From: a virus
Lineage: Duplodnaviria > Heunggongvirae > Uroviricota > Caudoviricetes
Reading direction: 5' to 3' (one strand)
DNA length: 58,959 nucleotides
IMG/VR virus record: IMGVR_UViG_2541047708_000006
The notes beneath the pieces were generated by a model. The model made no database searches and had not been told where the DNA came from. It saw nothing but the letters and a program-made list of their open reading frames with translations. Every line of letters begins with the position of its first letter. Position 1 is the first letter of the stretch. This document shows positions 1 through 54,507 of this stretch, in pieces. Made by a program: the position numbers and the translations under genes.

Positions 1-483
1 ATGACGAAGAAAAAAGCACATAAACCTGGTTCAGCGACCATCGCGCTTAACAAGCGCGCCCGTCACGAATACTTTATCGAAGAAGAGTTCGAAGCGGGAC
101 TTGCCCTGCAAGGCTGGGAGGTTAAATCCCTGCGCGCAGGAAAAGCCAATATCAGCGACAGCTATGTCCTTCTGCGCGACGGAGAGGCATTTCTGTTTGG
201 CGCTAACATCACGCCAATGGCTGTGGCCTCCACGCATGTGGTGTGCGATCCTACCCGTACCCGCAAGTTACTTCTCAACCAGCGCGAACTGGACTCATTG
301 TACGGTCGCGTCAATCGAGAAGGCTATACCGTAGTGGCGCTCTCCCTGTACTGGAAAAATGCCTGGTGCAAAGTGAAAATCGGCGTCGCCAAAGGTAAGA
401 AACAGCACGATAAACGTTCAGATATCAAAGAACGCGAATGGCAGGTGGATAAAGAGCGTATCATGAAAAATGCCCACCGTTAA
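1..483 (+). CDS. smpB: SsrA-binding protein SmpB
   Basis: 160 aa ORF; translation matches recalled E. coli SmpB; immediately upstream of tmRNA gene. Confidence 0.97.
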
Positions 484-697
484 ACCTATATAAGCGATAC
501 TAATCAAATCCTCACCGCGCCTCCCTATCCGGTGGCGCGAATGAACATCTTATCGACTGTCAAATCTGACACAGATGTAGCCATCCCATTGCTTAATCGA
601 AAAAAAATCATACTATGCAGGCGCTAATTCCAGGATGATAACGCCTTTTGGGCTAGTCATGCTGCTCATAAATCTGGTATACTTACCGTTACACATT

Positions 698-1060
698 GGG
701 GCTGATTCTGGATTCGACGGGATTTGCGAAACCCAAGGTGCATGCCGAGGGGCGGTTGGCCTCGTAAAAAGCCGCAAAAAATAGTCGCAAACGACGAAAA
801 CTACGCTTTAGCAGCTTAATAACCTGCTTAGAGCCCTCTCTCCCTAGCCTCCGCTCTTAGGACGGGGATCAAGAGAGGTCAAACCCAAAAGAGATCGCGT
901 GGAAGCCCTGCCTGGGGTTGAAGCGTTAAAACTTAATCAGGCTAGTTTGTTAGTGGCGTGTCCGTCCGCAGCTGGCAAGCGAATGTAAAGACTGACTAAG
1001 CATGTAGTACCGAGGATGTAGGAATTTCGGACGCGGGTTCAACTCCCGCCAGCTCCACCA
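698..1060 (+). ncRNA. ssrA: tmRNA (transfer-messenger RNA)
   Basis: Starts GGGGCTGATTCTGGATTCGACGGG, contains tag-reading-frame region, ends GGTTCAACTCCCGCCAGCTCCACCA; matches recalled E. coli ssrA. Confidence 0.95.
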
Positions 1061-19253: not shown

Positions 19254-20033
19254 TTACGCCAGTTGTACGGACACGAACGCATCAGGGTCAGCCAGCAGCA
19301 TCAGCGGTGCTGACTGAATCATGGTGAACTCACGCGCCGGATCGCCGGTGGTCACCCAGTTTTTCGGGTAGCGGGCAGAGGCGTTAATACCTTCGCGCTG
19401 TGCGTCCGCATCCTGAATGCAGCCATAGGTGCGCAGACCGCGTGCCTGAGTGTTCCCCAGCACCATCGTGTTGTCCGGCAGGAAGTTCTTTTTGACGTCG
19501 TTTTCCACGTACTGTCCGGAATACACGACGATCGCCGTATCGCCATACATCCCCTTATAGGACACCGCTTCGCCCAGGTCTTTTACCGCTGTCTCCAGCT
19601 CGGAATTAGAGCCGCGACGGGTATCCAGCTTCTCCTTGACGGCTTTGAAGGAACGGAACAGCGCCCAGCCTTTCGGATCAAACACGATGATATTCACCAC
19701 GCCGCTGGCGTTCAGCGCGTAGGCTTCGATATCGTCGGTCGGGTCATACGTGGACTTGTCACGCTTGCTCCACTCCGTACCACCGGACTGTGTGATGTTG
19801 TTCGCCGCACTGCGGCCCATATCCACTTCAACCGGATCGAAGGCTTCACCGGTCATGGTGTATTTGCCCTTAAGCACGGCAGAAACTGCCTGCATCTCTT
19901 CGACCTGAGCAATGGCCAGCTCTTCGTCTCGCATGTTCTGCATGATGATGCGACGGCGGCGGTAAGCCGGGTCCGCCAGATTCTGTGGATCTTCATCCGG
20001 CAGGCGACGCAGGGTCATCTGCGGATTCACCTC
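19254..20033 (-). pseudogene. E: Major capsid protein E, 3' portion (codons 83-341) separated from its 5' portion by the inserted satellite
   Basis: Translation EVNPQMTLRRLPDEDPQNLADPAYRRRRIIMQNMRDEE... matches recalled lambda gpE from residue 83; no upstream start; stop codon 3 codons upstream of junction. Confidence 0.9.
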
Positions 20034-20034
20034 A

Positions 20035-20044
20035 TGCTTGGGTT
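20035..20044 (+). repeat. Satellite att core, left copy (TGCTTGGGTT)
   Basis: Identical 10-mer at 30768-30777; lies exactly at the break in gene E. Confidence 0.8.
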
Positions 20045-20203
20045 ACATGAGTCAATGGTGTAAGTATGTGAATGATATAAGAGGAAAAATAGAGCATAAT
20101 CTCTACCTGAATGGCTATGTTGCAATACACACTGCAATACACAGAAATCAATGTACAAACCATTCAATTATCAACCCACAAATGAAGTGAATAAAGATTT
20201 GTT

Positions 20204-20965
20204 ATGAATATTATAGATACCCTTCAAAATGACCTAGAGCGCGCAGTAGCGCTTCAAAACATACTAATTGCAAGAGCTACAGGAGCCCAGGATGAAGCTA
20301 ATAATGATTATTTGCTTCTAAGAACATATTTCTTACAAAATCCTCCTTTACATCAGCTATTACCAGAGTTTGTGAGAACTAATCGCTCACTAAAAGAATT
20401 TTGGGGATTTATAAAAAAGACTGAAAAGTATGCCCCCCGGAGAGATTTGATTTATAAGGCATTTCAGCCGATGCTGGACTATCTAGAAGGGAAAAATAAA
20501 GCTCCAGCGGATGAAGACATATCTGATGTATTAAGAAAGTTTAACGAGGATGGAGTCCACGCCGTTTGGATAAAAGCACTTGAACGGCGCCATACAGATC
20601 CGGATGGTGCGATAACCTCCGCAAGAACACTTCTTGAAACAGTTTGCAAACACATTCTTGATGATATGGGCATTCAGTATAATAATAAAAATATTGAAAT
20701 GTCAGAGCTTTATAAAACTCTTTCAAAAGAACTTAACCTATCTGCCGACCAACATACTGAAAATATCTTCAAACAAATTCTCGGCGGTTGTTCTGCAGTT
20801 GTAAATGGGTTAGGTACTCTTCGTAATAAACTCGGTGATGCACATGGAACGAACAGCTCATCAATTAAGCCATCCCCAAGGCATGCCGAACTTGCAGTAA
20901 ATTTATCAGGCTCAATGGCTCTTTTTTTAATTAACACTTGGTTAAACCTTAAAGATGGGAAATAA
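20204..20965 (+). CDS. HEPN-type Abi_C-like (abortive infection C-terminal domain) protein
   Basis: 253 aa, AT-rich; C-terminal motif LRNKLGDAHG (R-x6-H) typical of HEPN/Abi_C. Confidence 0.7.
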   Translation: MNIIDTLQNDLERAVALQNILIARATGAQDEANNDYLLLRTYFLQNPPLHQLLPEFVRTNRSLKEFWGFIKKTEKYAPRRDLIYKAFQPMLDYLEGKNKAPADEDISDVLRKFNEDGVHAVWIKALERRHTDPDGAITSARTLLETVCKHILDDMGIQYNNKNIEMSELYKTLSKELNLSADQHTENIFKQILGGCSAVVNGLGTLRNKLGDAHGTNSSSIKPSPRHAELAVNLSGSMALFLINTWLNLKDGK

Positions 20966-21187
20966 CGTATAATGAAGTAACACGAGCAATTAGTTAATCA
21001 TTATACTCAGTCGATTAATTTATTTTGACGACTCGTAAGCAATTTTTCGATGAGGGCGGAACTCCGCCCTCGGTGCTAACCTATGAGAAACGATATCTCT
21101 TCCACCGATACCATAATATTAGGTATCGCGAAGAAGCCCCAAAATCAGTGTGTTGCTTTTACTACCCAAACTACCTGTAGTTTCATA

Positions 21188-21213
21188 GTCGAGTTGCAAA
21201 TTTGCAATTCGAC
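21188..21213. promoter_or_regulatory. 26 bp near-perfect palindrome (candidate operator)
   Basis: GTCGAGTTGCAAATTTGCAATTCGAC; one symmetric mismatch pair. Confidence 0.4.
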
Positions 21214-21367
21214 TACCAGCCACAAGGCGTAAATTTGCGTCGTCAGGAATATCAACGAGTTAGCATATGAATAGGCCAAACGGCCACAAACCTCACTTTT
21301 GAGGCTTGCTCATTTATTAGCTGGCTATGGTAAGGCCCATTTTGGGGCCGTCGAGAAAATCAAAGAG

Positions 21368-21643
21368 TTATCGCCGCAGTCTGTCAGGCTTCTTCCACTG
21401 GTACGATGCAACGTTCTGGCGTTGTCCCTGCCTCCGCCTAGCTGCCAGTATAGCCAGCACTTTGGTGCGGATGACTAAGCAATCCTGTCCGTTCAGTTCT
21501 ATACCGTCACGCCACATAACCTCAGCAACCACACGAGCGTAATTTTCAGCGGTGACACTGCCCGGCTGCGTGGCCTGTTCGTCATGCTGGTGGCTGACTC
21601 CACCAGCATGGCAGATTACTTTCAGTAGTTCGGATTCAGTCAT
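21368..21643 (-). CDS. Hypothetical protein downstream of satellite TerS
   Basis: 91 aa ORF 12 bp downstream of TerS on the same strand. Confidence 0.4.
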   Translation of the reverse strand: MTESELLKVICHAGGVSHQHDEQATQPGSVTAENYARVVAEVMWRDGIELNGQDCLVIRTKVLAILAARRRQGQRQNVASYQWKKPDRLRR

Positions 21644-21654
21644 AGCGTACTACG

Positions 21655-22182
21655 TTACTTATCCTTATTCAGCTGCAACTTATCCGGTACGTTTCCTGTA
21701 CTTTCCATCAGATAATCAGCCAGTATCTGTGGGAGGTTGTCAGCAACGCCGGCACTGGCATTACAGGCTTTAGCCACTTCCTTTTTAAGTCCATCCAGCA
21801 TAGCCGGAGTCATCTGTGGGAAGCGCCTTTGCATGGTAAGCGGCAGGCTGTCCATGATAGATGAAATCTGACTCGCCAGTTTGGAAAGAACATACATACA
21901 AAACTCTGTATCAATAACGTCGCCGCGTTCGCGCTCGTTTTTAAGCTCCTGCGCCTCTGCCTGTGCTGTCAGTAATCTGATCCTGACGCGTAAAAGTTCA
22001 TCGTCATCAATATCGCCCGTTTCGTTTGTAATCTGGCTGATTGCATTGTTAACCCGATTATCTATTACACTGGCAACATCATAGAACGCCTCACGGCCCT
22101 TACGCTCGACGGGAATCACTCCCCACTTATCGAACGCAGTGGCGCTTACACGGCAACTTTTTGCCATGTTTTTTTTGTTCAT
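21655..22182 (-). CDS. Satellite small terminase subunit, divergent Nu1 homologue
   Basis: Aligns by eye with helper Nu1 (36411-36956) including C-terminal region ...LPLTMQRRFPQM...; start placed at MNKKNMAK. Confidence 0.8.
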   Translation of the reverse strand: MNKKNMAKSCRVSATAFDKWGVIPVERKGREAFYDVASVIDNRVNNAISQITNETGDIDDDELLRVRIRLLTAQAEAQELKNERERGDVIDTEFCMYVLSKLASQISSIMDSLPLTMQRRFPQMTPAMLDGLKKEVAKACNASAGVADNLPQILADYLMESTGNVPDKLQLNKDK

Positions 22183-22309
22183 CAGGTGTAATTTCATTGA
22201 TACCACAACTTAATTACTGTTTCAGGTTGGTGTATTGATTGTATTTTTCTCTTATTATTCATACAGATATAGCGAACAACAAAACCACCACCAGTCCCCT
22301 TAAAATGCT

Positions 22310-22370
22310 CATAAATAGCGAAAACCCGCGCGCCTGACGCCCCGTAGCCTGTCAGATCGCCGGAAAGGAC
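22310..22370 (-). promoter_or_regulatory. Satellite cos site (lambda-like cosN flanks, different 12-nt core)
   Basis: CATAAATAGCGAAAACCCGCG-CGCCTGACGCCC-CGTAGCCTGTCAGATCGCCGGAAAGGACCCG parallels helper cos at 37110-37175, differing mainly in the cohesive-end core. Confidence 0.7.
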
Positions 22371-22398
22371 CCGCCAGCCAGAGCAGGCCCTAATTTCA

Positions 22399-22782
22399 TC
22401 AACCAATCAGCTTATAGCGACCATCCCGTGCATTGCGGCGTACACGCTCAATCTTGAGGCATAGCGCCGCATCTGGCTTTTTTGGGACAGGTACGCGGCA
22501 ATATTCAGAAGCGCGAGGAATATTATTTATCCAGTCGATCACTTCACTTAAATACCAGGCCTTACGCCCTTCCGTAACCTGCACACGCTCCGGGAACTCT
22601 CCACTAGCCTCAAGGTTTAGCAGTGTACGACGACTCAGGGTTGTAATTTCCATCACCTGATTCATATCAACAAGGCGCTCGCTTAAACACATTTTGTCAG
22701 CGATAGCTTTTAATTCCTCTACAGCTTGATTCGGGTACATCATTTCGGCAATTGGCTTAAGGTCATTGTAATCATTCTGCAT
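22399..22782 (-). CDS. AlpA/excisionase-family HTH DNA-binding protein
   Basis: C-terminal half MEITTLSRRTLLNLEASGEFPERVQVTEGRKAWYLSEVIDWINN is an AlpA-like motif; start uncertain. Confidence 0.6.
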   Translation of the reverse strand: MQNDYNDLKPIAEMMYPNQAVEELKAIADKMCLSERLVDMNQVMEITTLSRRTLLNLEASGEFPERVQVTEGRKAWYLSEVIDWINNIPRASEYCRVPVPKKPDAALCLKIERVRRNARDGRYKLIG

Positions 22783-22793
22783 TGTATCCCCCT

Positions 22794-23135
22794 TTACACA
22801 CGAGCCAGCGGCTGAACAGAAATACCTGAGCCAACAAACGCTGCAACCTTTACTGACAGTTCTTTAACAGACTCAGGCCAGTTCAGAGCATCAACATTTA
22901 AGACACCTGTCTTATAGACCTGAGCCTGTGTTTTTTTCGCGGTGTCGATTTGTACAGCGGAAACATAAACCGCTTTACCTACGCTCGAACCATCCCATAC
23001 TACCAGTGCACCTGTTGCATCTTCCTGCATCAGTGGCGTAAATGCAGGAATTACCCCTTTATTAGCTGAAAATATCCCCAGCGTAGTCACCAGTGCTTCA
23101 GTGCCAGCCATGAGTTCAGTGTAATGAGTAGCCAT
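22794..23135 (-). CDS. Head decoration protein, divergent gpD homologue
   Basis: 113 aa; shares TPLM, LVxWDG, AxVGxxAV, LxWP, AFxG blocks with helper gpD (31068-31400). Confidence 0.7.
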   Translation of the reverse strand: MATHYTELMAGTEALVTTLGIFSANKGVIPAFTPLMQEDATGALVVWDGSSVGKAVYVSAVQIDTAKKTQAQVYKTGVLNVDALNWPESVKELSVKVAAFVGSGISVQPLARV

Positions 23136-23144
23136 TGCTCCCCC

Positions 23145-24191
23145 TTAGCCAATGCGAACGGTAACAAAACGATTGATGCGGGCCGGTATTGGCTGTGGTG
23201 CTGAATGTGTCTGCACATATTCAATAGCCGGATCACCAGGCACAATATAGTTTTTCGGTGCAAGTTCGGCTTTAGTCAGCCCCATTCGGATTAGCTCCGG
23301 ATCCTGAATACCGCCATAGGCGACAATCCCCTGAAGAGCCGTATTGCCAAGCACCATCAAATCAGGATCAAGGAAATGTTTTTCTGTTCCGTCCTCGTCG
23401 GTATAACGCCCGCTGTAAACAACAATCGCAACATCGCCCATATACCCTTTAAAACTCACCGAATCACCAAGGTCTTTAAGGGCCGTTTCCAGTTCGGAAT
23501 TAGAACCACGACGGGTATCCAGAGCCTCTTTTATCGCTCTGAATGAACGGTATTTCTTCCATACATTACCGCCCATAATGATAATATTAGTGACGCCCTC
23601 ACTAAATTCTGCGTAGCTCTCAATATCATCATTTGGATCAAAAGTTTCTTTATCCTTACCTGACCACTCAGCACCGCCAGACTGAGTGATGATATTTTGT
23701 GGTTTAATATTCCAGTCCAGCTCATAACGTTCAATACCATCGCCCTCAATGATATTTTTCCCCGTTGTGATTGCCTGAACGGCAAGCCATTCAATACGTG
23801 CACGAATAGCTTTAGCCTGATTTACAATCGCCTGTTTAACTTTAATATTACGCGCTCCAAAAGCATTGTATTGCTCAGGTGATACACCAACAGGGCGCAC
23901 AGCTAACTTATTTGGATCAATGCTGCTTTTCGGCTTCATATAGCCTGGACGAATTGTTTTTGATTCGTACCCTTCGTCACGTGAAACTTTACTACCCACC
24001 ATAGGAGAACAAAACGCTGCAATTGGGATATTTGGATCGTCGATTGTATCAAGAATAATATCGCGCGATTCAAACATTACCGAGCGAGTAAAAAACAAAC
24101 TGGTAAACAACGCATTTAGTTGTTTTTGTACATCTACAGCATTAACCACCTGTACAAGCTGGGTAGGCGAATATAAATCAACCATACGCAT
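23145..24191 (-). CDS. Major capsid protein, divergent gpE homologue
   Basis: Start placed at MRMVDLYSPTQL; C-terminal two thirds align with gpE (ITQSGGAEWSGKDKETFDPNDDIESYA..., LDTRRGSNSELETALKDLG...). Confidence 0.8.
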   Translation of the reverse strand: MRMVDLYSPTQLVQVVNAVDVQKQLNALFTSLFFTRSVMFESRDIILDTIDDPNIPIAAFCSPMVGSKVSRDEGYESKTIRPGYMKPKSSIDPNKLAVRPVGVSPEQYNAFGARNIKVKQAIVNQAKAIRARIEWLAVQAITTGKNIIEGDGIERYELDWNIKPQNIITQSGGAEWSGKDKETFDPNDDIESYAEFSEGVTNIIIMGGNVWKKYRSFRAIKEALDTRRGSNSELETALKDLGDSVSFKGYMGDVAIVVYSGRYTDEDGTEKHFLDPDLMVLGNTALQGIVAYGGIQDPELIRMGLTKAELAPKNYIVPGDPAIEYVQTHSAPQPIPARINRFVTVRIG

Positions 24192-24402
24192 CCTCTTTGC
24201 ATTCATTAAAAATAATTGTGGATATATGCTATCACCGATATTTGTCATGCGAATACATGCAACCGAGTGCAATGTTGTATAAAGTTTTGGGATAACAACT
24301 TCAGCGCGGATAATTAGTGTTAATATCTTCACTCCCTTTGGTCGGGATTTATGTAGCATGCCGGAAAATTTATTTTTTTCCGGCCTTTTTTATTGGCAAT
24401 AT

Positions 24403-24852
24403 TTAAAACGGAATATCATCTCCCCATTGTTCATTATCTCCCACTGGTGGATGGCTTCCTTGCTGATCTGCCTGTTGTTTTGCTCTGTTCAGTGCGTCAG
24501 TAGCCTGACCCTGTTGACCTTTTTTGCCGCCCGGTCGCACCGTTCGCGCACTGATTACGCTGTCTGCGATAACCTGCCAGCCCTGCCGCGTTTCACCGTT
24601 CTGTCCAGTCCACTGGCTCACCTGCATATTACCCGCCACGCTCAGGAGTTCGCCTTTGTGATGCTTTGCCAGCGCGTCGGCTTGTCTGCCAAACGCCAGG
24701 ACAGATAACCACATCGTCGCCTGACCGTCATCCGACTGACTGCAGGGCAGTGATACCGCCATACGCGCCAGCGTCATGGGGGTGCCCTTGCTGGTCTGTT
24801 TTGTCTGCGGGTCGTCCACCAACCGCCCGTAAACTGATATTTGCGCCGTCAT
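24403..24852 (-). CDS. ssb: Single-stranded DNA-binding protein
   Basis: OB-fold-like N-terminal region, Gly/Gln-rich linker and acidic C-terminal tail ending DDIPF. Confidence 0.85.
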   Translation of the reverse strand: MTAQISVYGRLVDDPQTKQTSKGTPMTLARMAVSLPCSQSDDGQATMWLSVLAFGRQADALAKHHKGELLSVAGNMQVSQWTGQNGETRQGWQVIADSVISARTVRPGGKKGQQGQATDALNRAKQQADQQGSHPPVGDNEQWGDDIPF

Positions 24853-25094
24853 GCTGCCTGCTCTCCGGACTTAATATTGATTGTTGCCACTTCCTCCGCT
24901 TCAGCAATCTCCCGTTCGGTCAGAGTGGCAAAGTTTGCAGCCGCCGTTGTCATGAATGCGCTAATCAGTTCGGGATGTGCTTTCGCGTATCCTTCCCCGG
25001 CGTTGCGGTCGATGATTTTTATCGACACCCTTAACCAGTGTTCCGTCAAATCAAGGGCGTGCGATTGTGATTTTTTTGTGTGCTTCGCTGTCAT
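24849..25094 (-). CDS. Hypothetical protein
   Basis: 81 aa ORF between iterons and ssb, overlaps ssb start by 4 nt. Confidence 0.4.
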   Translation of the reverse strand: MTAKHTKKSQSHALDLTEHWLRVSIKIIDRNAGEGYAKAHPELISAFMTTAAANFATLTEREIAEAEEVATINIKSGEQAA

Positions 25095-25146
25095 AGGCTT
25101 TATCTCACAGCAGTAAATTAAAATTTTTGCGTTTTAACCCTTCACC

Positions 25147-25368
25147 TGTTCACCTTTTGATATTTTCTCTTTTAATTCATAATGTTAATGGGTGAACAGT
25201 TTCACAAAAACTATTCACCAACTGTTCACCACTGTTCACCCTTGAAGCTCAATAAACAATCAAAAAGGTGAACAGTGAATAGTTTGGTGAACAGTTCATA
25301 AATAACTGTTCACCCTATAATATACTGATATAAAAGATATTTATGACAGGGTGAACAGTGGTGAACAG
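25147..25368. repeat. Satellite replication origin iterons (GGTGAACAG / CTGTTCACC, about 9 copies, both orientations)
   Basis: Repeated octamer TGTTCACC, the motif bound by phage P4 alpha protein at ori/crr; immediately downstream of the primase gene. Confidence 0.8.
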
Positions 25369-25381
25369 TTATTCCATAAGT

Positions 25382-27202
25382 TTAATTTTTGCTATCGTCA
25401 TTAGTGACCGATACACATGATGGCATCCAGTCTTCTGATTCCTCCGTCAGTGTCACGTTTGAACGCAAACCGTGCTTCGTTTTCCGTTTCATATACTCCC
25501 TGCCATATTCCGCCATTGCCCCCGGCATATCTTTACCGAAGCGCGTCAGTGTTACAGGTTTACCAAACCCATGTGCCCTCATATAAGCCAGATAGGCATG
25601 ATAGAGATACCTGCGTGGGCTGAATGGCACAATTTCAGCATTACCCACTAACAGGCCATCACACATTACCGATGCCATGAGATAGCCGCAGAAGTCCACC
25701 AGCGAATCCCCCTCTCGCTTTATCGCCAGTGCTTCTTCAGATTTCTGCTGCTCATATAACAGGCGTCTGGCTTCGTCCTGATCAGCAAACCGTGTAAGCA
25801 GATGGCGAATCACTACCGCCAGCTCACCTTCTATTTTTTCCGCCAGCATCGAATCGCGTTCGTTCTCCGGTACAACTTCCGAAAAATTGAATATCACCCG
25901 ACGACGTGAGATCCCCCCGCTGCGGTCACTGAATGACATGGCGTTATTGTTAACCGCCAGCACTACTGCCGGAATACGCGTTGAATAGGGGGCTTTGTGT
26001 TTCGGGTCAATTGCCACCTTGTCACCGCCTGTAATGGCCTTAATCCCTGCCCCATCACCAGCGTAGCGGGTCATATCCGGCATGATAATCAGCGAAAAGC
26101 CAACCACTAACGCACGTTCCCTTGCATCTTCCAGCGCCTTCATGCTTGCTGATACTGTATTCGCCTTACCCGCCAGCATGGTGCAAATCTCCGCCATCAC
26201 ACTTTTACCACTTCCCCCCGGCCCTGTTACCTCAATGAATAACTGCCAGTCGTACCGGTTCGCCAGCACCATGAATAATGCCGCCAGTACGCGATCTGCC
26301 TTGCGGTCATTCTCAGCCACCGAACGGCGCAACCACTTCCAGAAATTCGGCGCATGTGTTGCCAGCGTTTCCCCCTCTGCTGGTGGGCTGAAAGGTAATT
26401 CACTGGCAATTAACAACCAGTCGTTTTTGTTATGCTCCCGAAAATTACCAGTTCTGGTATCAAATACCCCGTTACTGAATCCAATCAGGTTACGGGCTGT
26501 ATTCCCCATTACAGGCAAACTTAACTTCATGGTATCTACCGCCGATTTAATGGCGTTCTGCGAATAGCTGATCTCCGCATCAATGAAAATCTGCGCCATA
26601 GCACGCTGTAACTCTTTATCCTGAACCGGCTCCCATACAACGCCGTTGTAATGATGAACGGTGTCAGAGTCGGCATTGATTGCCAGTTCGCCGCCGTAAT
26701 GTGCAAGGAGAACTTCACCGCGCTGGCTGGCCCCCATCTGATTCAACGCCAAAGATGAAGCACGCTCGTCATTTTTGCGCTCTGCCTTCTTCACTGGCAG
26801 TTCAATCACCAGACTTTCCCCATGCTCCGCTTCAGCTTTTAGGCCGACAAGGCGCGGAGTCCAGTCTTCAGGCTCTCGATCAACAAAGCTACGGTAACAA
26901 CGTGCTTCCTTTACGCCTGCAATAGCAAGTAATGTCGCAACCTTCGTCAGACTTTTCTCTGCAATCTTTCCGGCACGATAAACACGCACATAATGACGGC
27001 CTTCATCGATAATTTGCATATCATCCAGGTTTTCCAGTTGTTCCGTACCCAGAATGACTGGTGGTGTATCATCTGCTGCAATATGCTTACCTGCCCATTC
27101 ATTCCATTCTTTTGCATGGCTCCAGGCATCACTGCCAGCAAAAATGATGACTTCCGTCATTTTGTCGCGCGGTTGGTATTTTAAGTTCGGAGCACGTTTC
27201 AT
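25382..27202 (-). CDS. P4 alpha-like primase-helicase
   Basis: 606 aa; Walker A GPGGSGKS in the central region; position next to TGTTCACC iterons. Confidence 0.85.
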   Translation of the reverse strand: MKRAPNLKYQPRDKMTEVIIFAGSDAWSHAKEWNEWAGKHIAADDTPPVILGTEQLENLDDMQIIDEGRHYVRVYRAGKIAEKSLTKVATLLAIAGVKEARCYRSFVDREPEDWTPRLVGLKAEAEHGESLVIELPVKKAERKNDERASSLALNQMGASQRGEVLLAHYGGELAINADSDTVHHYNGVVWEPVQDKELQRAMAQIFIDAEISYSQNAIKSAVDTMKLSLPVMGNTARNLIGFSNGVFDTRTGNFREHNKNDWLLIASELPFSPPAEGETLATHAPNFWKWLRRSVAENDRKADRVLAALFMVLANRYDWQLFIEVTGPGGSGKSVMAEICTMLAGKANTVSASMKALEDARERALVVGFSLIIMPDMTRYAGDGAGIKAITGGDKVAIDPKHKAPYSTRIPAVVLAVNNNAMSFSDRSGGISRRRVIFNFSEVVPENERDSMLAEKIEGELAVVIRHLLTRFADQDEARRLLYEQQKSEEALAIKREGDSLVDFCGYLMASVMCDGLLVGNAEIVPFSPRRYLYHAYLAYMRAHGFGKPVTLTRFGKDMPGAMAEYGREYMKRKTKHGLRSNVTLTEESEDWMPSCVSVTNDDSKN

Positions 27203-27486
27203 TTGTTACCTCCGGCAACTAACATTGCCCGAATTTTACGGATATAGCCTGCGGCACGCCTCTGATTATCTGTCTTGCAATTTTTTACCAGAATGAAATC
27301 TCTTTCGAACTGCTGACGCGGCATAACACATTCAAAATCATAACCATCACGCAAATAAGAGACACGACGATCATCAACCGAAATAATCTTTACCCGATAG
27401 CCATAGCTATCTTTGAAAATATCCCCAAGGCTGATTTTTGAATGAGTTTGACCGCTGGCAATAAAGCCAGAAAATTTATTTTTCAT
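27199..27486 (-). CDS. Hypothetical protein
   Basis: 95 aa, overlaps primase start by 4 nt. Confidence 0.5.
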   Translation of the reverse strand: MKNKFSGFIASGQTHSKISLGDIFKDSYGYRVKIISVDDRRVSYLRDGYDFECVMPRQQFERDFILVKNCKTDNQRRAAGYIRKIRAMLVAGGNK

Positions 27487-27489
27487 TTT

Positions 27490-27714
27490 TTATTCTCCGG
27501 TATAGCTCTGGTCGTGTATTTTTATAGCTTCATCCAGCTCTTTGATGACAGGATCAAGTAACGTAATTAACGCTCCAGCTAAATTAGCATCCCGTTCATC
27601 GTGTTCCGCATTTGTTGTCCCATCAAGCCAGGTTGATAAGATTTCTCGCATATTTTTGCCACAAACGAGCGCGTTTTCAGCATGTGTCAGCACTTTAAAA
27701 TAAAGATCATTCAT
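27490..27714 (-). CDS. Hypothetical protein
   Basis: 74 aa, acidic; tightly packed in operon. Confidence 0.5.
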   Translation of the reverse strand: MNDLYFKVLTHAENALVCGKNMREILSTWLDGTTNAEHDERDANLAGALITLLDPVIKELDEAIKIHDQSYTGE

Positions 27715-28072
27715 GGCACACCTCCTGACGAATACGGGCGGCGAACATCATCACGCAGCCAGTTGGGGATTGCTGGCGGGCTTCCTGTTCGCTGGTGGCC
27801 TCGATGGTAATCACGCGCGGTTGTGCCGTACTCAGGGCGATAAAACGCCAGATGAAATTGTTTTCACATTTCTGAATAAACAGCGTGTTTTCTTCCCGCC
27901 CTTTCCAGAAAGCCGCAGTATAGCCCATCTCCTTAACCATCTTGCGCGCATCAACCAGCGTGTCAGCGGCTACATGTACCGTAGTTGCTCCATCTGCTAT
28001 GCGATCGCGATGTAGCGCCAGAAAGATGTATATAAATTTAGGGTGAGTTTGGGTATGCTGTGTTCCAGCCAT
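27707..28072 (-). CDS. Hypothetical protein
   Basis: 121 aa; first gene of leftward satellite operon. Confidence 0.5.
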   Translation of the reverse strand: MAGTQHTQTHPKFIYIFLALHRDRIADGATTVHVAADTLVDARKMVKEMGYTAAFWKGREENTLFIQKCENNFIWRFIALSTAQPRVITIEATSEQEARQQSPTGCVMMFAARIRQEVCHE

Positions 28073-28103
28073 AGTCGTTACTCCAGTTAACGGTTTGTGG
28101 TTA

Positions 28104-28208
28104 GACGCCCTAGGTGTGTTGCGAGCACCCTAGGGCGTTGTTTATAGGTATAACATCATGTTAATGTGTGTACCTATTCAACACTGATGCTAAGCAATAG
28201 GTACACAC
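28104..28208. promoter_or_regulatory. Divergent promoter/operator region with two inverted repeats
   Basis: GACGCCCTAGGTG...CACCCTAGGGCG and GTGTGTACCTATT...AATAGGTACACAC; the second abuts the ATG at 28209. Confidence 0.4.
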
Positions 28209-28403
28209 ATGTCAACTACAATTCAAAGAGATAAGCAGCCAAAAGGAGCCGGCAAAGCCCCTGCGTTTCAGATCCGAATCAATCCTGAACTCAAAGAACA
28301 GATGGCTGAATCAGCAGCTCAGGAAGGAATGAGCTTGGCCAATTGGATTAAAGAATTAGTTCGTGCTGAGCTTCGCCGTAAAGGTATAGAACCTAAAGGC
28401 TAA
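28209..28403 (+). CDS. Ribbon-helix-helix (Arc/CopG-like) small DNA-binding protein
   Basis: 64 aa; FQIRINPELKEQMAESAAQEGMSLANWIKELVRAEL fits beta-strand/helix/helix pattern. Confidence 0.6.
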   Translation: MSTTIQRDKQPKGAGKAPAFQIRINPELKEQMAESAAQEGMSLANWIKELVRAELRRKGIEPKG

Positions 28404-28435
28404 TTTTTTTAATTTTTATTGAATAGGATATTCAA

Positions 28436-29119
28436 ATGACTCCAACTCCTGACGATGCTGTATTCACTGCATCAAACATTATAAATTTCTTCGTGGCACT
28501 CGGGACTTGCACAGCAGTGTTAGTTGCATTAATTGCTAAAAAGCAATCATCTTTTGAATCAACATTTTCTCTCATGTTATCTCAACATAACAATGCTCTA
28601 AATGATCTTAGAAAAAAATCAAATTACTCAGAGTTAATTAATAAAATGATGAATGGATTGGTTTCTTTAAAAGACACTAATACACTGATGCACAATCATG
28701 ATGCTGTTTTTGGAAGCTACTTCAGAATATTATATCATCTATTGAAGTTCATTGATGAAAATGCTGGATACCATCCCTTTGATCTAGATCGTAAAAAAAC
28801 CTATACAAGCCTTGTCCGTGCACATCTAGATAATGAAATAACGTATTTACTTGCAATAAACTGTGCACATGCTAACAGTGAAAATCAATATCATTTTTAT
28901 AAAACATTGATTGAGCGCTATGCCATGTTAGAACATTTAATCTTGGATAAATCAACGCTATTGGACTATACCCCTCCAGATTTAAATGAATATCAAAAAG
29001 ATTTGCGCGTAGCAACAATAGTGGTTACCGATGATATAAAAACTATTTTTAACGAGATTGCAACAGTATATTATAAGAGCGCATTTGGAAAAAACCCTGA
29101 TTTAAAAAATTTCCTGTAA
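28436..29119 (+). CDS. Membrane-anchored protein of unknown function (candidate abortive-infection effector)
   Basis: 227 aa, AT-rich; one N-terminal TM helix (IINFFVALGTCTAVLVALIA); 33 bp downstream of the RHH gene. Confidence 0.65.
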   Translation: MTPTPDDAVFTASNIINFFVALGTCTAVLVALIAKKQSSFESTFSLMLSQHNNALNDLRKKSNYSELINKMMNGLVSLKDTNTLMHNHDAVFGSYFRILYHLLKFIDENAGYHPFDLDRKKTYTSLVRAHLDNEITYLLAINCAHANSENQYHFYKTLIERYAMLEHLILDKSTLLDYTPPDLNEYQKDLRVATIVVTDDIKTIFNEIATVYYKSAFGKNPDLKNFL

Positions 29120-29145
29120 GATATAGGGAGGAATACCTCCCTAAC

Positions 29146-29367
29146 TTACCATTCACCTCTTATCCAAGCTTGAATCTCAGAGAGTCTATAAGCCACCGCC
29201 GTAGATCCGATTTTGATTCGCTTGGGGAATTTCCCCTCCTTTTCAAGCTTCCAGCGTGTGCTGTTCGCAAGAGTGGTTAGCTCCCGACATTCTTTCTCAC
29301 GGATCATTCGGTCAATGTTAGGAATGTACTCCAGCCCCTTTTTATCAACAATTGCCATTTTTTTCAT
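29146..29367 (-). CDS. alpA: AlpA-family transcriptional regulator/excisionase
   Basis: 73 aa, typical AlpA pattern, directly downstream of integrase. Confidence 0.8.
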   Translation of the reverse strand: MKKMAIVDKKGLEYIPNIDRMIREKECRELTTLANSTRWKLEKEGKFPKRIKIGSTAVAYRLSEIQAWIRGEW

Positions 29368-29368
29368 G

Positions 29369-30604
29369 CTAACCAGCCTTTTGTTTGAGGATTGTCACTT
29401 TTGAATCAGCAGCTGCGATGCTATTGAGATATGTAGTCCAGAGTTCCAGAGCATCCAGTTTTTTAGCCATAAACTTACTCCGGTTGTAAACACCTGCCAC
29501 GCCAGGTAGCGCATGGCCTAACAGTTGTTCTACTACATAAAATTCAACACCGAGATCACTTAGATGAGTAGATAGCGTTCTTCTAAGGTCGTGTAGTGAC
29601 CATTGTTTTTCATGGCCCAAACGTTTACCGATTTTCCCCCCAATCTTGCTTACGCTTTCTCTAATTCGCAGACTTCCCAGCACATAACCAGTATGTTTTG
29701 TCTCTTCGTGAACATCCGTTACCCACTGCCGTAGAATTTCAGGTACTGGCCTGACAATTTCAACACCAGTTTTTGAGTGATCTTTCGGTACAGTCCAAAC
29801 CCAACTTTCTAGATCCCATTCGCTCCATTCTGATAATCGGGCTTCACTCATTCGACATCCAAATACTGTACAAAGCACAAACATTTTTCGCGTGTATTCA
29901 GACATTAGTTTTAAATCAGGCTCGACAAAAATTGCCTTCCAGAGCTGGCCCAGTTCGGCTTCATCCAGAACCCGATCCCGCTTACCTGCAATCTGCCCCA
30001 CATCACTCATGCGCAAATCCTTTAAAGCATCACACGTCGCGTACTGGCGTACCCGACAAAAACGAAGAGCTAATTTAGTGTCAGAAAAAACATACGCCGC
30101 CATAACTGGTGCATTACGTTTAATTCGGTCAAAACAGTCCAGCCATTCATATAGGTGAGTGTCATTTACGGGCAAATGACCGATATAGGGAAAGATATGC
30201 TTTCGAAATCTGCCAAGCGTTACAGCATGAGTTTTACGACGCACCTTACAGTAATTTTCATACCAGTAATTTAGTGCATCCTCCACTGTGACCGGCTTTA
30301 AGCGTTCTTCAGCCTGAATCTTAATCTGAATACGCGGATCACGTTTGTCAGCCAACCAACCACGGCACTCGTCGCGCTTTTCCCTTGCCTGTTTGAGTGA
30401 CATATCAGGATATTTACCCAACGTTAGCCAGACCGGAGCAGCCCGGCCACCTGCTAACCTGTAGAAGAAAACAAAGCTCACAGCCCCCTTGGTACTCACA
30501 CGAATAGAAAGCCCCTTTCCATCAGCAATGGTGATCTGCTTTTCTCTAGGTTTCCCCAGATATCCTTTAAGTGCTTTGTCGCTCAGTTTGTTCTCGCCAG
30601 CCAT
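29369..30604 (-). CDS. int: Tyrosine integrase (P4-like)
   Basis: Start placed at MAGENKLSDKALK (ORF track extends 44 codons further upstream); C-terminal HDLRRT...GH...Y catalytic signature; adjacent to att core. Confidence 0.9.
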   Translation of the reverse strand: MAGENKLSDKALKGYLGKPREKQITIADGKGLSIRVSTKGAVSFVFFYRLAGGRAAPVWLTLGKYPDMSLKQAREKRDECRGWLADKRDPRIQIKIQAEERLKPVTVEDALNYWYENYCKVRRKTHAVTLGRFRKHIFPYIGHLPVNDTHLYEWLDCFDRIKRNAPVMAAYVFSDTKLALRFCRVRQYATCDALKDLRMSDVGQIAGKRDRVLDEAELGQLWKAIFVEPDLKLMSEYTRKMFVLCTVFGCRMSEARLSEWSEWDLESWVWTVPKDHSKTGVEIVRPVPEILRQWVTDVHEETKHTGYVLGSLRIRESVSKIGGKIGKRLGHEKQWSLHDLRRTLSTHLSDLGVEFYVVEQLLGHALPGVAGVYNRSKFMAKKLDALELWTTYLNSIAAADSKVTILKQKAG

Positions 30605-30766
30605 TTTTAGCCCCAAAAAGCAATACAAGCTGCAATACAGAGATGATTGCAACACACAGATAACGAGGAAAATCCAGTGAAAGCGCCAGATAAACTTACT
30701 CTTTATTATCAAAAGATTAAGTGTAAAAACCAGCAACTACACGAAAGCCTCAGAAAGCCATGCTAA

Positions 30767-31012
30767 GTGCTTGGGTTTGACATATCCCGGTGTAAATTCA
30801 GAGGTGGAGCCGCCACGGGATCGGATAACCTCACCGGAAACAATCGGCGAAACGTACAGCGCCATGTTTACCAGTCCCGGAATTTGTGAGAGATAGACTT
30901 TCTCCGTGGTGAAGGGATAGCTCTCACGGAAAAAGAGACGCAGAAACAGCGGATCAAACTTAAATTTCTTCTCATTTGCCGCCAGCAGCTGGGCGGTTGT
31001 GTACATCGACAT
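30767..31012 (-). pseudogene. E: Major capsid protein E, 5' portion (codons 1-82), reads into satellite and stops after 9 foreign codons
   Basis: MSMYTTAQLLAANEKKFKFDPLF...GYVKPKH matches recalled gpE N-terminus, then LAWLSEAFV-stop. Confidence 0.9.
30768..30777 (+). repeat. Satellite att core, right copy (TGCTTGGGTT)
   Basis: Identical to 20035-20044. Confidence 0.8.
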
Positions 31013-31067: not shown

Positions 31068-31400
31068 TTAAACGATGCTGATTGCCGTTCCGGCAAACGC
31101 GGTCCGTTTTTTCGTCTCGTCGCTGGCAGCCTTCGGCCAGAGCACATCCTCATAACGGAACGTGCCGGACTTGTAGAACGTCAGCGTGGTGCTGGTCTGG
31201 TCAGCTGCAACCGCCAGAATGCCAACGGCAGCACCGTCGGTGGTGCCATCCCACGCAACCAGCTTACGGGTGGCGGTGTCCAGCATCAGCGGGGTCATTG
31301 CAGGCGCTTTCGCACTCAATCCGCCGGGCGCGGTTGCGGTATGAGCCGGGTCACTGTTGCCCAGCGGCTGGTAATGGGTAAAGGTTTCTTTGCTCGTCAT
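31068..31400 (-). CDS. D: Head decoration protein D
   Basis: [27 protein letters not shown]... matches recalled lambda gpD. Confidence 0.95.
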
Positions 31401-31409
31401 AAACATCCC

Positions 31410-32709
31410 TTACACTGGTGTGTTCAGCAAATCGTTAACGGCATCAGATGCCGGGTTACCTGCAGCCAGCGGTGCCGGGGCACCCTGCATCAGACGATCC
31501 AGCGCAGTGTCACTGCGCGCCTGTGCACTCTGTGGTGCTGCGGCCAGAATGCGGCGGGCCGTTTCCACGGTCATACCGGGGGTTTCAGCCAGCACGCGTG
31601 CCTGTTCTTCGCGTCCGTGAGCCTCCTCACAGTTGAGGATCCCCATAATGCGGCTGTTTTCTGCCGCAACCGCTGCGGTGATCTGCGCGTTCACGTCCGG
31701 CTGCGCCGCGCTGGCGTTTTCGCCCTCCGTCGCTGGCACCACGTCAGTAACGTCAGCCTGCGAAGCAGTGGCTGAAACAGTTGTTGATTGAGTCTCTTTG
31801 GTCATTCGCCCTCCTGAGAGACGGGATTTACGTGCATCCAGTGCATCACGCATGACGGTGATCGCATCGGTGCTGTTAACAAGTTCATCAGCCAGTCCGG
31901 CATCAATGGCCTCCTGACCGCTGTACACTGCAGCCTCGGTATCCAGCACAGCCTGCACGGACAGGCCGGTATATGCCGACACCTTCTGCGCAAATATCCG
32001 ACGGGTTGCATCCATCCGGGACTGCAGTGTCTCCCGGACGTCATCCGGAAGATGGCTGTAGGGGTTGCCATCCACCTTATGGCTGCCGCTGTAAATCAGC
32101 GTGATTTCCACGCCCTGTTTCTCCAGCGCAGCACCGTAATTACTGTGAGCCATCATGACGCCGATGGAGCCTGTCCGGGCGGTCTGCGTGACCAGACGCC
32201 GGGAAGCGGCGCTGGCAAGCAGCTGACCTGCACTGCAGTTCATGTCGTTGGCCAGCGCCCATACCGGTTTTATGTCACGCACACGGGCGATGATGTCAGC
32301 GCAGTCAAATGCCCCCGCCACCATCCCGCCGGGCGTGTCCATATCGAGCAGAATGCCGTCCACCATCGGATCGCTGGCAGCCTGTTGCAGACGGGCGATA
32401 ATGCCGTTGTAACCGGTCATTCCCGAATACGGCTGCAGCGCCCGCGTCCGGCTGACCAGCGTGCCGGACACCGGCAGCACGGCGATGCCGTTCATGACCT
32501 GATAACTGCGGGCCTGTCGTGGTCCGTCATCATTAACGGATAACGCCAGCGCCGCGGGTGCCTCTCCGGCAGTCAGGCTGTCGCCGGATACTGCATCCGT
32601 CAGGCGGCTGATCCCAAGCTGGCCTGCAAGCGCACAAAAGAAAACCCGCGCATAGGCGGGTTCAAGCATCAGCGGCTCATTAAAAGCCATGCTGGCAATA
32701 TGCGGGAGA

Positions 32710-32729
<20 letters not shown>
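31410..32729 (-). CDS. C: Head maturation protease C (with nested scaffold Nu3 frame)
   Basis: GTG start giving (M)TAELRNLPHIASMAFNEPLM...; lambda gpC-like throughout. Confidence 0.9.
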
Positions 32730-36410
<3,681 letters not shown>

Positions 36411-36436
<26 letters not shown>

Positions 36437-36956
36437 TCAGCAACCCCGGTATCAGTTCATCCAGCGCGGCTGCTTTGTTCATGGCTTTGATGATATCCCG
36501 TTTCAGGAAATCAATATGCCGGTTATCCAGCTCAGGAAAACGCCGCTGCACCGACAGGGGGATCCCGTCGAGAATACTGGCAATTTCACCTGCGATCCGC
36601 GACAGCACGAAAGTACAGAATGCGGTTTCCACTACTTCAGCGGAGTCTCTGGCATTTTTCAGCTCCTGTGCGTCGGCCTGCGCACGCGTAAGTCGATGGC
36701 GTTCGTACTCAATAGTCCCAGGCTGGAGATCTGCCTCGCTGGCAGCCCTGTAATCCTCAACCTCTTTACGGAGTTTTTCATTTTCGATATCAGCTTCCCT
36801 CTGCGCATACCACTGAATTGCCATGGCGGTATCAAATACAGATTCAACGCCCTTACTACCTCCGGAGACGCAAGGGAGTCCCTGAGACTGCCAGCGTTCA
36901 ATCGTTCGCGGATCCACGTTGAAAATTTCGGCAAGTTTCTTTTTATTAACCTTCAT
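36411..36956 (-). CDS. Nu1: Terminase small subunit Nu1
   Basis: [23 protein letters not shown]...; lambda Nu1-like; about 190 bp from cosN as in lambda. Confidence 0.95.
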
Positions 36957-37098
36957 GAAACAGTCTCACAATAAATACAGGGTCCGACATGAAAGTGCCC
37001 GAAAATGACTTTTTTAGGCGTTTTCATGTCGGACCTTTTACGGATTCGATATTAGAAAAAACAAATAGTTATGTTCGAGAAGTACCGACATGATTTTC

Positions 37099-37180
37099 CC
37101 CGGAAAAATTTCATAAATAGCGAAAACCCGCGAGGTCGCCGCCCCGTAACCTGTCGGATCGCCGGAAAGGACCCGAAAAA
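37099..37180 (-). promoter_or_regulatory. Helper prophage cos site (cosN core about 37133-37144, cohesive end GGGCGGCGACCT on minus strand)
   Basis: Reverse complement reads GGGCGGCGACCTCGCGGGTTTTCGCTATTTATGAAA..., the lambda left end; preceded by ...CCGACAGGTTACG as at the lambda right end. Confidence 0.85.
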
Positions 37181-54261: not shown

Positions 54262-54507
54262 ATGTTGCTCCCGTGTGCAGACGGGATAATGGAGAAACGT
54301 ATGCTGAACCTCGATTGTGTTCCTATCTCAACTTATTGCAAAGAAACTGGCGAAACTCCTGAAGCAATAAACAAACGTGTACAGCGCGGTGTTTGGCGTG
54401 AAGGTGTTCAGGTTTTAAAGGTTGAAGGCGTTAAGGAGAGGTGGATTGATCTTAGTGAGGTTGCAAAATGGGCCAGACAAAACTGCTCAAACTACCGCGC
54501 GGCGTAA
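54262..54507 (+). CDS. xis: Putative excisionase
   Basis: 81 aa ORF overlapping int start; position upstream of int; weak motif. Confidence 0.45.
   Translation: MLLPCADGIMEKRMLNLDCVPISTYCKETGETPEAINKRVQRGVWREGVQVLKVEGVKERWIDLSEVAKWARQNCSNYRAA

Follow-up and report, generated by a model that had tools for sequence, protein, structure and literature searches.

The DNA analysed here is a stretch of 58,959 nucleotides (nt) from a tailed-phage record (IMGVR_UViG_2541047708_000006), hereafter the window. It carries a lambdoid prophage, the helper, whose major capsid gene E is split by a smaller satellite element. The letters under study, positions 21655-24191, lie inside that satellite and encode, on the minus strand, a capsid protein, a head-decoration protein and a small terminase subunit (TerS) related to lambda gpE, gpD and Nu1, respectively. 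Gene annotation was taken from the RefSeq record NZ_CP109921.1 (Escherichia coli C 237-04), which is 100% identical to the window. The features discussed below are collected in Table 1.

The satellite that splits gene E

The satellite lies between two copies of a 10-bp direct repeat, the attachment-site (att) core AACCCAAGCA, which spans codons 79-82 of helper E. Excision at this repeat, performed in silico, yields an intact helper E of 341 amino acids (aa) with no replacement sequence, and this rejoined protein matches the lambda gpE sequence at 334 of its 341 positions. The first-pass annotation had described helper E as disrupted in the lysogen, and both of its fragments were indeed located. 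Because the att core is poorly matched in the satellite's own capsid gene (5/10 at the equivalent position), the satellite would be unable to integrate there. The core agrees with the 10-bp identity block described for Eco567.11capE (hereafter 11capE; PMC10111431).

Sixteen genes are annotated in the satellite, which is 100% identical in five complete E. coli genomes and covered over at least 80% of its length in 40. The minus-strand order runs from int through a helix-turn-helix (HTH)/AlpA gene, accessory genes, an Icd-like gene, a DUF4222 gene, a D5-type primase gene and the gene for a single-stranded DNA-binding protein (SSB) to a late module ordered capsid, decoration, AlpA-like, cos, TerS, orf91 and accessory. 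The core satellite genes are co-oriented with the helper late genes, and helper E fragments flank the satellite on both sides. At one end lies a tyrosine integrase of 411 aa (29369-30604, minus strand; phrog_1, 7e-64), which fits the clade of helper-embedded phage-inducible chromosomal islands (HE-PICIs): 68 IMG/VR loci encode an integrase with 89-100% identity to it, and the int gene of 11capE in NRG857c is annotated at the same position. AlpA-type regulators are represented by the HTH gene adjoining int and by a second AlpA-family gene at 22399-22782, and replication functions by a 606-aa primase (Pfam D5_N/DUF5906/Pox_D5) together with SSB. The make-up is likewise that of a PICI, in that a capsid-morphogenesis gene and a small terminase gene are accompanied by head decoration as the only other structural gene, no lysis genes are annotated, and the length of 10,733 bp compares with an expected about 10-15 kb. 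Of the five core components that de Sousa et al. 2023 (PMC10085698) assign to PICIs, capsid-morphogenesis and terS genes are two.

The first-pass annotation had stated that the satellite encodes no portal, protease or large terminase subunit (TerL), and none is found among the 16 annotated genes. By tblastn, the satellite holds no homologue of helper A, B, C/Nu3, W, FI or FII (best E = 0.12); the same search with helper Nu1, D and E returned 8e-29, 9e-15 and 1e-65. A capsid-forming PICI (cf-PICI) is ruled out, as the satellite has neither TerL nor the portal, maturation protease and head-tail connectors of that class.

The helper-embedded class was described by Tommasini, Mageeney & Williams 2023 (bioRxiv 10.1101/2022.07.18.500453; PMC10111431), who mapped 201 elements to the site E:Phage_cap_E:80 (PMC10111431). 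By every criterion that can be read from sequence, the element in the window is an HE-PICI of class E:Phage_cap_E:80 and a sister of 11capE.

P4-like immunity RNAs (C4, isrK) were sought in the satellite with Rfam, and none matched at E <= 0.1. In the late module, predicted promoters and terminators were no more numerous than in shuffled sequence, and no terminator on the minus strand was strong, a null result compatible with a single late operon but not evidence for one.

Table 1. Coordinates of satellite and helper features in the window
Feature	Position	Strand	Details
Satellite (helper-embedded PICI)	20035..30767	(-)	10,733 bp counting one att core copy; direct repeat at both ends and annotation
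att core copy, E C-terminal side	20035..20044	(-)	10 bp, AACCCAAGCA on gene strand
att core copy, E N-terminal side	30768..30777	(-)	10 bp, AACCCAAGCA on gene strand
Satellite major capsid protein, lambda gpE family, HK97 fold	23145..24185	(-)	346 aa; Pfam Phage_cap_E 8.3e-41
Satellite head-decoration protein, gpD/SHP family	22794..23135	(-)	113 aa; Pfam HDPD 4.5e-15
Second AlpA-family regulator, between D and cos	22399..22782	(-)	127 aa; Pfam Phage_AlpA 7.5e-9; PDB 8C3T AlpA 2.2e-9
Satellite cos	22275..22395	(-)	cosQ-like left flank; cosN 12-mer GGGCGTCAGGCG at 22331-22342; own cosB, GGTGGTGGTTTTGTTGTT at 22275-22292
Satellite small terminase, Nu1 family	21655..22197	(-)	180 aa; Pfam Phage_Nu1 1.1e-24
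Conserved open reading frame after TerS (orf91)	21368..21643	(-)	91 aa; phrog_1561 8.8e-46; 55% to the open reading frame following RppA in EcCICFT073
Helper gene E, C-terminal fragment	19254..20044	(-)	Pfam Phage_cap_E 1.5e-49, profile positions 94-328; RefSeq pseudogene
Helper gene E, N-terminal fragment	30768..31012	(-)	joins C-terminal fragment to give 341-aa E
Helper head and packaging genes D, C/Nu3 (S49 peptidase), B (portal), W, A (TerL), Nu1	31068..36956	(-)	annotation
Helper cosN	37133..37144	(-)	exact lambda 12-mer GGGCGGCGACCT

Capsid and decoration genes

The capsid protein matches Phage_cap_E (PF03864) over positions 4-327 of 329 and the decoration protein matches HDPD (PF02924) over positions 1-111 of 116, that is, over the full length of the capsid profile and the whole decoration domain; PHROGs places them in the major head (2.4e-89) and head decoration (1.3e-25) families. 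An AlphaFold model of the capsid protein (pTM 0.77) aligned in Foldseek with PDB entry 3BQW, the capsid protein of EcCICFT073, at a TM score of 0.84 and with lambda gpE (7SJ5) at 0.82, gpE structures in general giving 0.64-0.82. The decoration protein is related by sequence to phage 21 SHP (1TD0, 4.7e-16) and to gpD (1C5E, 1.1e-11). The three open reading frames (ORFs) lie where the first-pass annotation had placed them, except that the capsid gene starts at 24185 instead of 24191 and the TerS gene at 22197 instead of 22182; profile and structure comparisons bear out its assignments to E, D and Nu1, giving an HK97-fold capsid protein, a gpD-like decoration protein and a Nu1-family TerS. Its description of the genes as highly diverged from those of the helper is equally apt, with 47% identity between the two E proteins in a C-terminal stretch of 239 aa and 31% in an N-terminal stretch of 86 aa, 38% between the D proteins and 34% overall between TerS and helper Nu1.

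Among 50,697 phage records, the closest capsid protein is lambda E, at 42% identity. Nearer homologues form a series, from 98-99% and 85% in E. coli through 72-79% in Cedecea, Scandinavium and Serratia to a further group at 51-61%, with the phage E proteins beyond at 42%. The homologues at 51-100% belong to satellites in every context examined, comprising chromosomal PICIs at roxA/phoQ (loci L002-L004 and L040, and EcCICFT073 in L041) and at fis (Serratia L111, Lelliottia L113) and a portal-embedded element of Edwardsiella (L112). As no phage record exceeds 42% for the capsid protein or 47% for TerS, and as the nearer capsid homologues examined are all from satellites, the lineage appears to be an old satellite one. 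To judge from these relatives, the three late genes are the ordinary Gram-negative PICI late module of that lineage and not recent copies of helper genes; the capsid-decoration (E-D) pair, which is found outside the embedded lifestyle, is older than it.

Full-length ORFs are intact in Escherichia, Serratia, Edwardsiella, Lelliottia, Cedecea and Scandinavium, and dN/dS values of 0.08-0.16 for the capsid gene and 0.08-0.17 for the decoration gene indicate purifying selection. Both genes are present in 61 of the 63 surveyed loci in which the region is visible. Given this strict linkage and strong purifying selection, the E-D proteins are functional. Most likely, they contribute subunits to the shell or modify it; by analogy with EcCICFT073, they are probably inessential for transfer. 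Our literature search found no later paper settling the role of PICI capsid and decoration genes.

Three observations concern individual relatives and residues. Residue Y313 of the 346-aa capsid protein (23247-23249, minus strand) occupies the position of lambda gpE W308; Tyr is also found there in many relatives of the satellite clade, and Trp in all phage E proteins aligned. Structure 7SJ5 is that of the lambda W308A mutant, which is presumably defective in assembly. In Edwardsiella tarda, a satellite (L112, 1-11681) lies inside a prophage portal gene and has genes for the capsid and decoration proteins but none for a portal, the helper D-E genes beside it being intact; the Lelliottia PICI at fis (L113, 9001-11752) carries capsid, decoration and a C-like S49 protease. 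The differing sets of L112 and L113 indicate that satellite late genes vary stepwise.

Satellite cos and small terminase

The satellite cos was located through the similarity of its flanks to helper cos: positions 22295-22373 are 85% identical to helper positions 37097-37175 over 79 bp, covering the cosQ-proximal flank and the cosN flanks. Downstream of this stretch, the satellite cosB is unrelated to that of the helper. A search for the exact lambda cosN found none within two mismatches at the satellite cos position. In a comparison of the window with loci L043-L110, L010, L030 and L038, the 12-mers of satellite and helper are unlike in 27 of 33 composites, further variants being GGGCGGAAGGCG, GGGCGTCGACCT and GGGCGGCAGACT, and the 12-mer of the present satellite is found in ordinary lambdoid prophages too.

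The satellite TerS matches Phage_Nu1 (PF07471) over positions 34-162 of 164 and the phrog_57 small terminase family (9e-53); a phmmer search against the PDB returned nothing at E <= 1. Its closest relative among the phage records is N15 gp1, at 47% identity. The resemblance is strongest in the N-terminal DNA-binding domain, which is 52% identical to N15 gp1, with which it shares deletions relative to lambda Nu1, against 27% to helper Nu1. The central region has 44-46% identity to all lambdoid TerS proteins compared, including 45% to helper Nu1. The C-terminal 40 residues are 30% identical to helper Nu1, with the pattern kept, and are followed by a 14-aa tail (TGNVPDKLQLNKDK). The gene occurs in 692 of 5,426 complete E. 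coli genomes, including the chromosomal PICIs of O157:H7 strains, and is likewise under purifying selection (dN/dS 0.06-0.21).

Across the satellite TerS family, the DNA-binding domain is conserved and the C-terminal third (21655-21780, minus strand, in the window) is mosaic, with at least three C-terminal types (L085, L087, L091, L092, L099): the E. coli type with the 14-aa tail, a lambda-like type (L085 and L087, in lambda-type helpers) and a third. This looks like domain swapping that would match TerS to different helper large terminases.

The 127-aa AlpA-family protein has an N-terminal extension and a counterpart in the Serratia PICI at fis (L111, 10403-10756); in E. coli roxA/phoQ PICIs its place is taken by an unrelated 137-aa ORF, for which the O157 version has no relative in the PDB. 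A dN/dS comparison of the AlpA-like gene with L022 and L002 was discarded as misaligned. Neither the 127-aa protein nor TerS is an Rpp: the former matches AlpA (8C3T) in the PDB and no Rpp, and the latter shows no detectable similarity to CFT073 RppA (E = 6.3). The satellite cosB, moreover, is of a class other than the CCACCACCAC type, which rules out the Rpp-type packaging class.

Packaging genes in sister elements

The 68 loci identified through the integrase served as a survey sample, in 59 of which the gene after cos could be classed. A lambda-type cosB (R3 motif) without TerS, as in 11capE, was present in 32 of the 59; an own cosB with an N15-like TerS (57-100% identity) in 19; a lambda-type cosB together with a lambda-like Nu1 (at 72-73% identity to lambda-type Nu1) in five; and an Rpp-like gene behind a CCACCACCAC-type cosB in three. 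The minimal set of capsid, decoration and TerS genes in the first-pass annotation is thus not a fixed unit, only 19 of 59 sister elements carrying an N15-like TerS. TerS and cosB co-occur strictly: the own cosB was found at all 19 loci with an N15-like TerS and at none of the 40 others, and a lambda-type cosB never accompanied an N15-like TerS.

Where the helper is visible, all 17 satellites with a lambda-type cosB (14 without TerS, three with a lambda-like Nu1) sit in helpers with a lambda-type cosB, and the sole helper with a phage-21-type Nu1 N-terminus and cosB, represented by this window and by L101, hosts a TerS-bearing satellite. A restriction of own TerS to helpers with a non-lambda cosB is nevertheless ruled out, as 11 TerS-bearing satellites lie in lambda-type helpers. 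Element size ranges from 10.4 to 11.3 kb, so that four copies amount to 42-45 kb. Among 16 short IMG/VR contigs examined for free or circular satellite forms, none had a terminal overlap or circular junction and 11 had detectable helper-E flanks, for which reasons they look integrated.

Helper prophage and accessory genes

The helper is a lambdoid prophage at ssrA, the tmRNA gene, of about 44-45 kb, or about 55 kb including the satellite; the composite of about 55 kb exceeds what a lambda-size head holds. It adjoins ssrA at window positions 1-1060, and its integrase lies at the far end (about 54468-55640). Helper Nu1 (36411-36956, minus strand) is a natural chimera, its first approximately 85 residues resembling the phage-21-type TerS of CFT073 prophage 4 and the remainder being lambda-type; the helper cosB (36957-37130) likewise resembles that of CFT073 prophage 4.

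Accessory genes resembling anti-phage defence genes lie on the opposite strand at both satellite ends (20204-20965 and 28436-29119, plus strand). One encodes an Abi_C/AbiJ-like protein (Pfam 1.3e-23; PADLOC AbiJ 2.2e-21) and the other a weakly AbiC/AbiP-like protein. The same slots in sister elements hold a gene for a TIR-domain protein or HEPN and DUF262 genes (L005, 10009-10884; L007, 28537-30253). Because sister elements hold other genes there, both end slots appear to be cargo hotspots.

Discussion

Taken together, the locus is probably best explained as an HE-PICI with an ordinary PICI late module and packaging redirection based on its TerS. Under this explanation, recombination at the 10-bp repeat would remove the satellite and restore helper E, as the in silico excision illustrates; for 11capE, excision on induction has been measured at 42-98% by 2-3 h (PMC10111431). 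We propose that the satellite then exploits the helper head and packaging genes. After excision it would replicate into concatemers through its own primase and SSB, as PICI biology suggests. Its TerS would read the satellite-specific cosB through the N15-like winged-helix domain, in keeping with their co-occurrence, and this cosB adjoins a cosQ/cosN that would be compatible with the helper, where helper TerL (gpA) would cut and translocate after recruitment either directly by the TerS C-terminal domain or through mixed oligomers with helper Nu1. The satellite DNA would then enter proheads made by the helper as four genome copies, the only number that fits, as 42.9 kb lies inside the range of roughly 38-51 kb that lambda packages. 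Four-copy packaging fits the phage-sized DNA of EcCICFT073 (PMC6092414). A T=3 head is estimated, by volume scaling from lambda, to hold about 13-14 kb and would accommodate one copy, so that element size does not discriminate between models.

Several points weigh against this explanation. Virions of 11capE could not be detected (PMC10111431). The cosN 12-mers of satellite and helper, GGGCGTCAGGCG and GGGCGGCGACCT, differ at 5 of 12 positions, and cutting of the former by the helper terminase is assumed. The C-terminus of Nu1 binds gpA in lambda; the satellite TerS is diverged in this part and bears the 14-aa extension, which makes direct binding to helper gpA only putative. Finally, the 11 TerS-bearing satellites in lambda-type helpers imply that a mismatch with the helper is not the whole reason for carrying a TerS.

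The first-pass annotation had put forward a combined strategy, in which the satellite capsid protein replaces the disrupted helper E and the Nu1-like TerS directs helper gpA to satellite DNA. Packaging redirection in its general form is supported by the satellite's own cos and by the pairing of TerS with its cosB (19/19), insofar as sequence can speak to it; the capsid half fares poorly. In its full form, this model has the shell around satellite DNA made of satellite E and D, assembled with the portal, scaffold and protease of the helper, while TerS redirects gpA, both being required. It can draw on the split of helper E in the lysogen, on the co-orientation with the late operon, which would let Q-dependent transcription read into satellite E and D ahead of excision (an idea in PMC10111431), and on the E-D linkage (61/63 loci) and purifying selection, which suggest a cognate pair of shell and cement. 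Excision, however, restores helper E, and satellites that leave E uninterrupted also carry E-D (roxA/phoQ, fis and the portal-embedded L112), so that the pair does not appear to compensate for the interrupted gene. L112 carries E-D, not a copy of the portal gene, although the helper D-E next to it is intact. Deletion of the capsid and decoration genes of EcCICFT073 changed neither transfer nor interference (PMC6092414), and 40 of 59 sister elements have no N15-like TerS. We consider the full model unlikely. The same doubt attaches to a variant in which the shell of transducing particles would consist of satellite E-D, with portal, scaffold and protease supplied by the helper, making these widespread elements a "half capsid-forming" intermediate between classical PICIs, which take everything from the helper, and cf-PICIs, which take only tails, with a TerS that recruits TerL without Nu1 and is ancestral to Rpp.

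A capsid homologue might instead redirect head size, acting like Ccm of SaPIbov5 to give small heads (about T=3 or T=4) for one or two 10.7-kb genomes and excluding the helper genome. PICI capsid-morphogenesis genes are thought to modify hijacked capsids (PMC10085698), PmCI172 encodes a capsid homologue and makes small capsids (PMC6092414), the narrow 10.4-11.3 kb range would suit a small head, and Tyr replaces the phage-invariant Trp at the lambda W308 position in many satellite-clade members. Yet the packaged DNA of EcCICFT073 was all phage-sized and deletion of its capsid gene did not relieve interference (PMC6092414), nor does the sequence carry any sign of an altered T number, and size redirection strikes us as quite improbable. 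The lack of a phenotype for the EcCICFT073 capsid gene (PMC6092414) might also be taken to mean that the late genes are decaying, functionless remnants of captured helper genes, but intact full-length ORFs across six genera, dN/dS values of 0.06-0.21 and the presence of the TerS gene in 692 of 5,426 complete E. coli genomes speak otherwise; the selection analysis effectively refutes this notion, which we regard as extremely improbable. As regards the TerS itself, it might work in an Rpp-like manner, forming mixed oligomers with helper Nu1 through its central domain without binding gpA, diverting terminase to the satellite cosB and poisoning helper packaging. TerS sits where RppA does in EcCICFT073, between cos and orf91/93, its central region has 45% identity to helper Nu1 against only 30% for the C-terminus, and evolution of Rpp from TerS was suggested by the authors who described it (PMC6739421). 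Set against this are the full length of TerS (Rpp proteins have 144-153 aa), the swapping of C-terminal domain types among relatives, the lambda type included, as expected if this domain engages TerL, and the lack of detectable sequence similarity to RppA. An Rpp-like mode is thus a possibility that deserves to be kept in mind, although we lean away from it.

PICI capsid and decoration genes occur in most Gram-negative PICIs and are under selection, yet gave no phenotype in the sole model tested. Because the helper capsid gene is off until excision, helper-embedded elements are a natural place to seek an E-D phenotype. The satellite lineage surveyed here, moreover, displays four packaging-specificity solutions at a single position, namely an own TerS with its cosB, an Rpp-like gene, a lambda-like Nu1 and a copied helper cosB. 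It thus offers a compact natural system for studying the evolution of cos-terminase specificity and for engineering PICI-based delivery vehicles.

Comparison with known systems

The closest described relative is 11capE of NRG857c (PMC10111431), which shares the integrase clade, the 10-bp att core near codon 80 of a lambda-like E, the gene order and a size of about 11 kb. Comparison with its sequence revealed the same capsid, decoration and AlpA-like genes and the same satellite cosN 12-mer, GGGCGTCAGGCG. Beyond cosN, the cosB of 11capE is lambda-type and leads into the truncated start of a Nu1 gene; it has no TerS, the absence of terS being stated by its authors (PMC10111431), whereas the element in the window has its own cosB and a full-length N15-like TerS. 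The cargo (HEPN and DUF262 in 11capE, Abi here) and the prophage site (icd versus ssrA) differ as well.

EcCICFT073, which serves as the Gram-negative model (Fillol-Salom 2018, 2019; PMC6092414, PMC6739421), has the same module order of capsid, decoration, small ORF, cos, packaging-specificity gene and orf91/93, a homologous capsid protein (3BQW, E = 1e-120 by sequence; 54% in the Foldseek alignment) and lambdoid cos phages as helpers. Unlike the present element, it is chromosomal (roxA/phoQ), encodes an RppA of 144 aa that needs the helper TerS, and combines a CCACCACCAC-type cosB with the lambda cosN 12-mer. Homologues of terS have been noted in some Gram-negative PICIs (Fillol-Salom et al., PMC6092414). 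At roxA/phoQ, O157:H7 and other E. coli strains have chromosomal PICIs (L002-L004, L040) that carry the module of capsid, D, cos, TerS and orf93, with a TerS at 89% protein identity (L002) and about 88% DNA identity in O157:H7 strains. Their capsid protein, in contrast, is only 55% identical, they have another integrase, an AAA_25/RepA helicase replication module and another att site, and they are not helper-embedded.

An own capsid protein and TerS are also encoded by cf-PICIs such as EcCIEDL933 (Alqurainy et al., bioRxiv 10.1101/2022.09.08.507074), which differ in having portal, protease, head-tail connectors, HNH and TerL, and in forming small capsids of their own so that only tails are stolen. 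In principle, the arrangement recalls the pac-type Staphylococcus aureus pathogenicity islands (SaPIs), where a satellite TerS redirects helper TerL and Ccm of SaPIbov5 is a satellite-encoded capsid homologue; the SaPI sequences are unrelated, however, packaging is headful and not cos-based, Ppi blocks the phage TerS, and Ccm demonstrably makes small capsids. Among phages, N15 has in gp1 the closest TerS, and the motif TTGTTGTT occurs in both cosB regions, that of N15 being a single-R3 cosB. The C-terminal half of gp1 is lambda-like, unlike that of the satellite TerS, the two have different 12-mers at cosN, the shared motif is displaced by about 9 bp, and N15 is an autonomous phage.

Seen against these systems, the element in the window is a TerS-bearing subtype of the published HE-PICI class, and the finding is largely known. 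Nor is the proposed strategy new as an idea, since capsid and terS genes are listed as core PICI components (PMC10085698) and a backup capsid copy has been proposed (PMC10111431). The additions are modest: the TerS-bearing HE-PICI subtype itself, four interchangeable packaging cassettes at one position, the strict co-occurrence of TerS and cosB, the mosaic TerS C-terminus, and cohesive ends that are usually unlike between satellite and helper.

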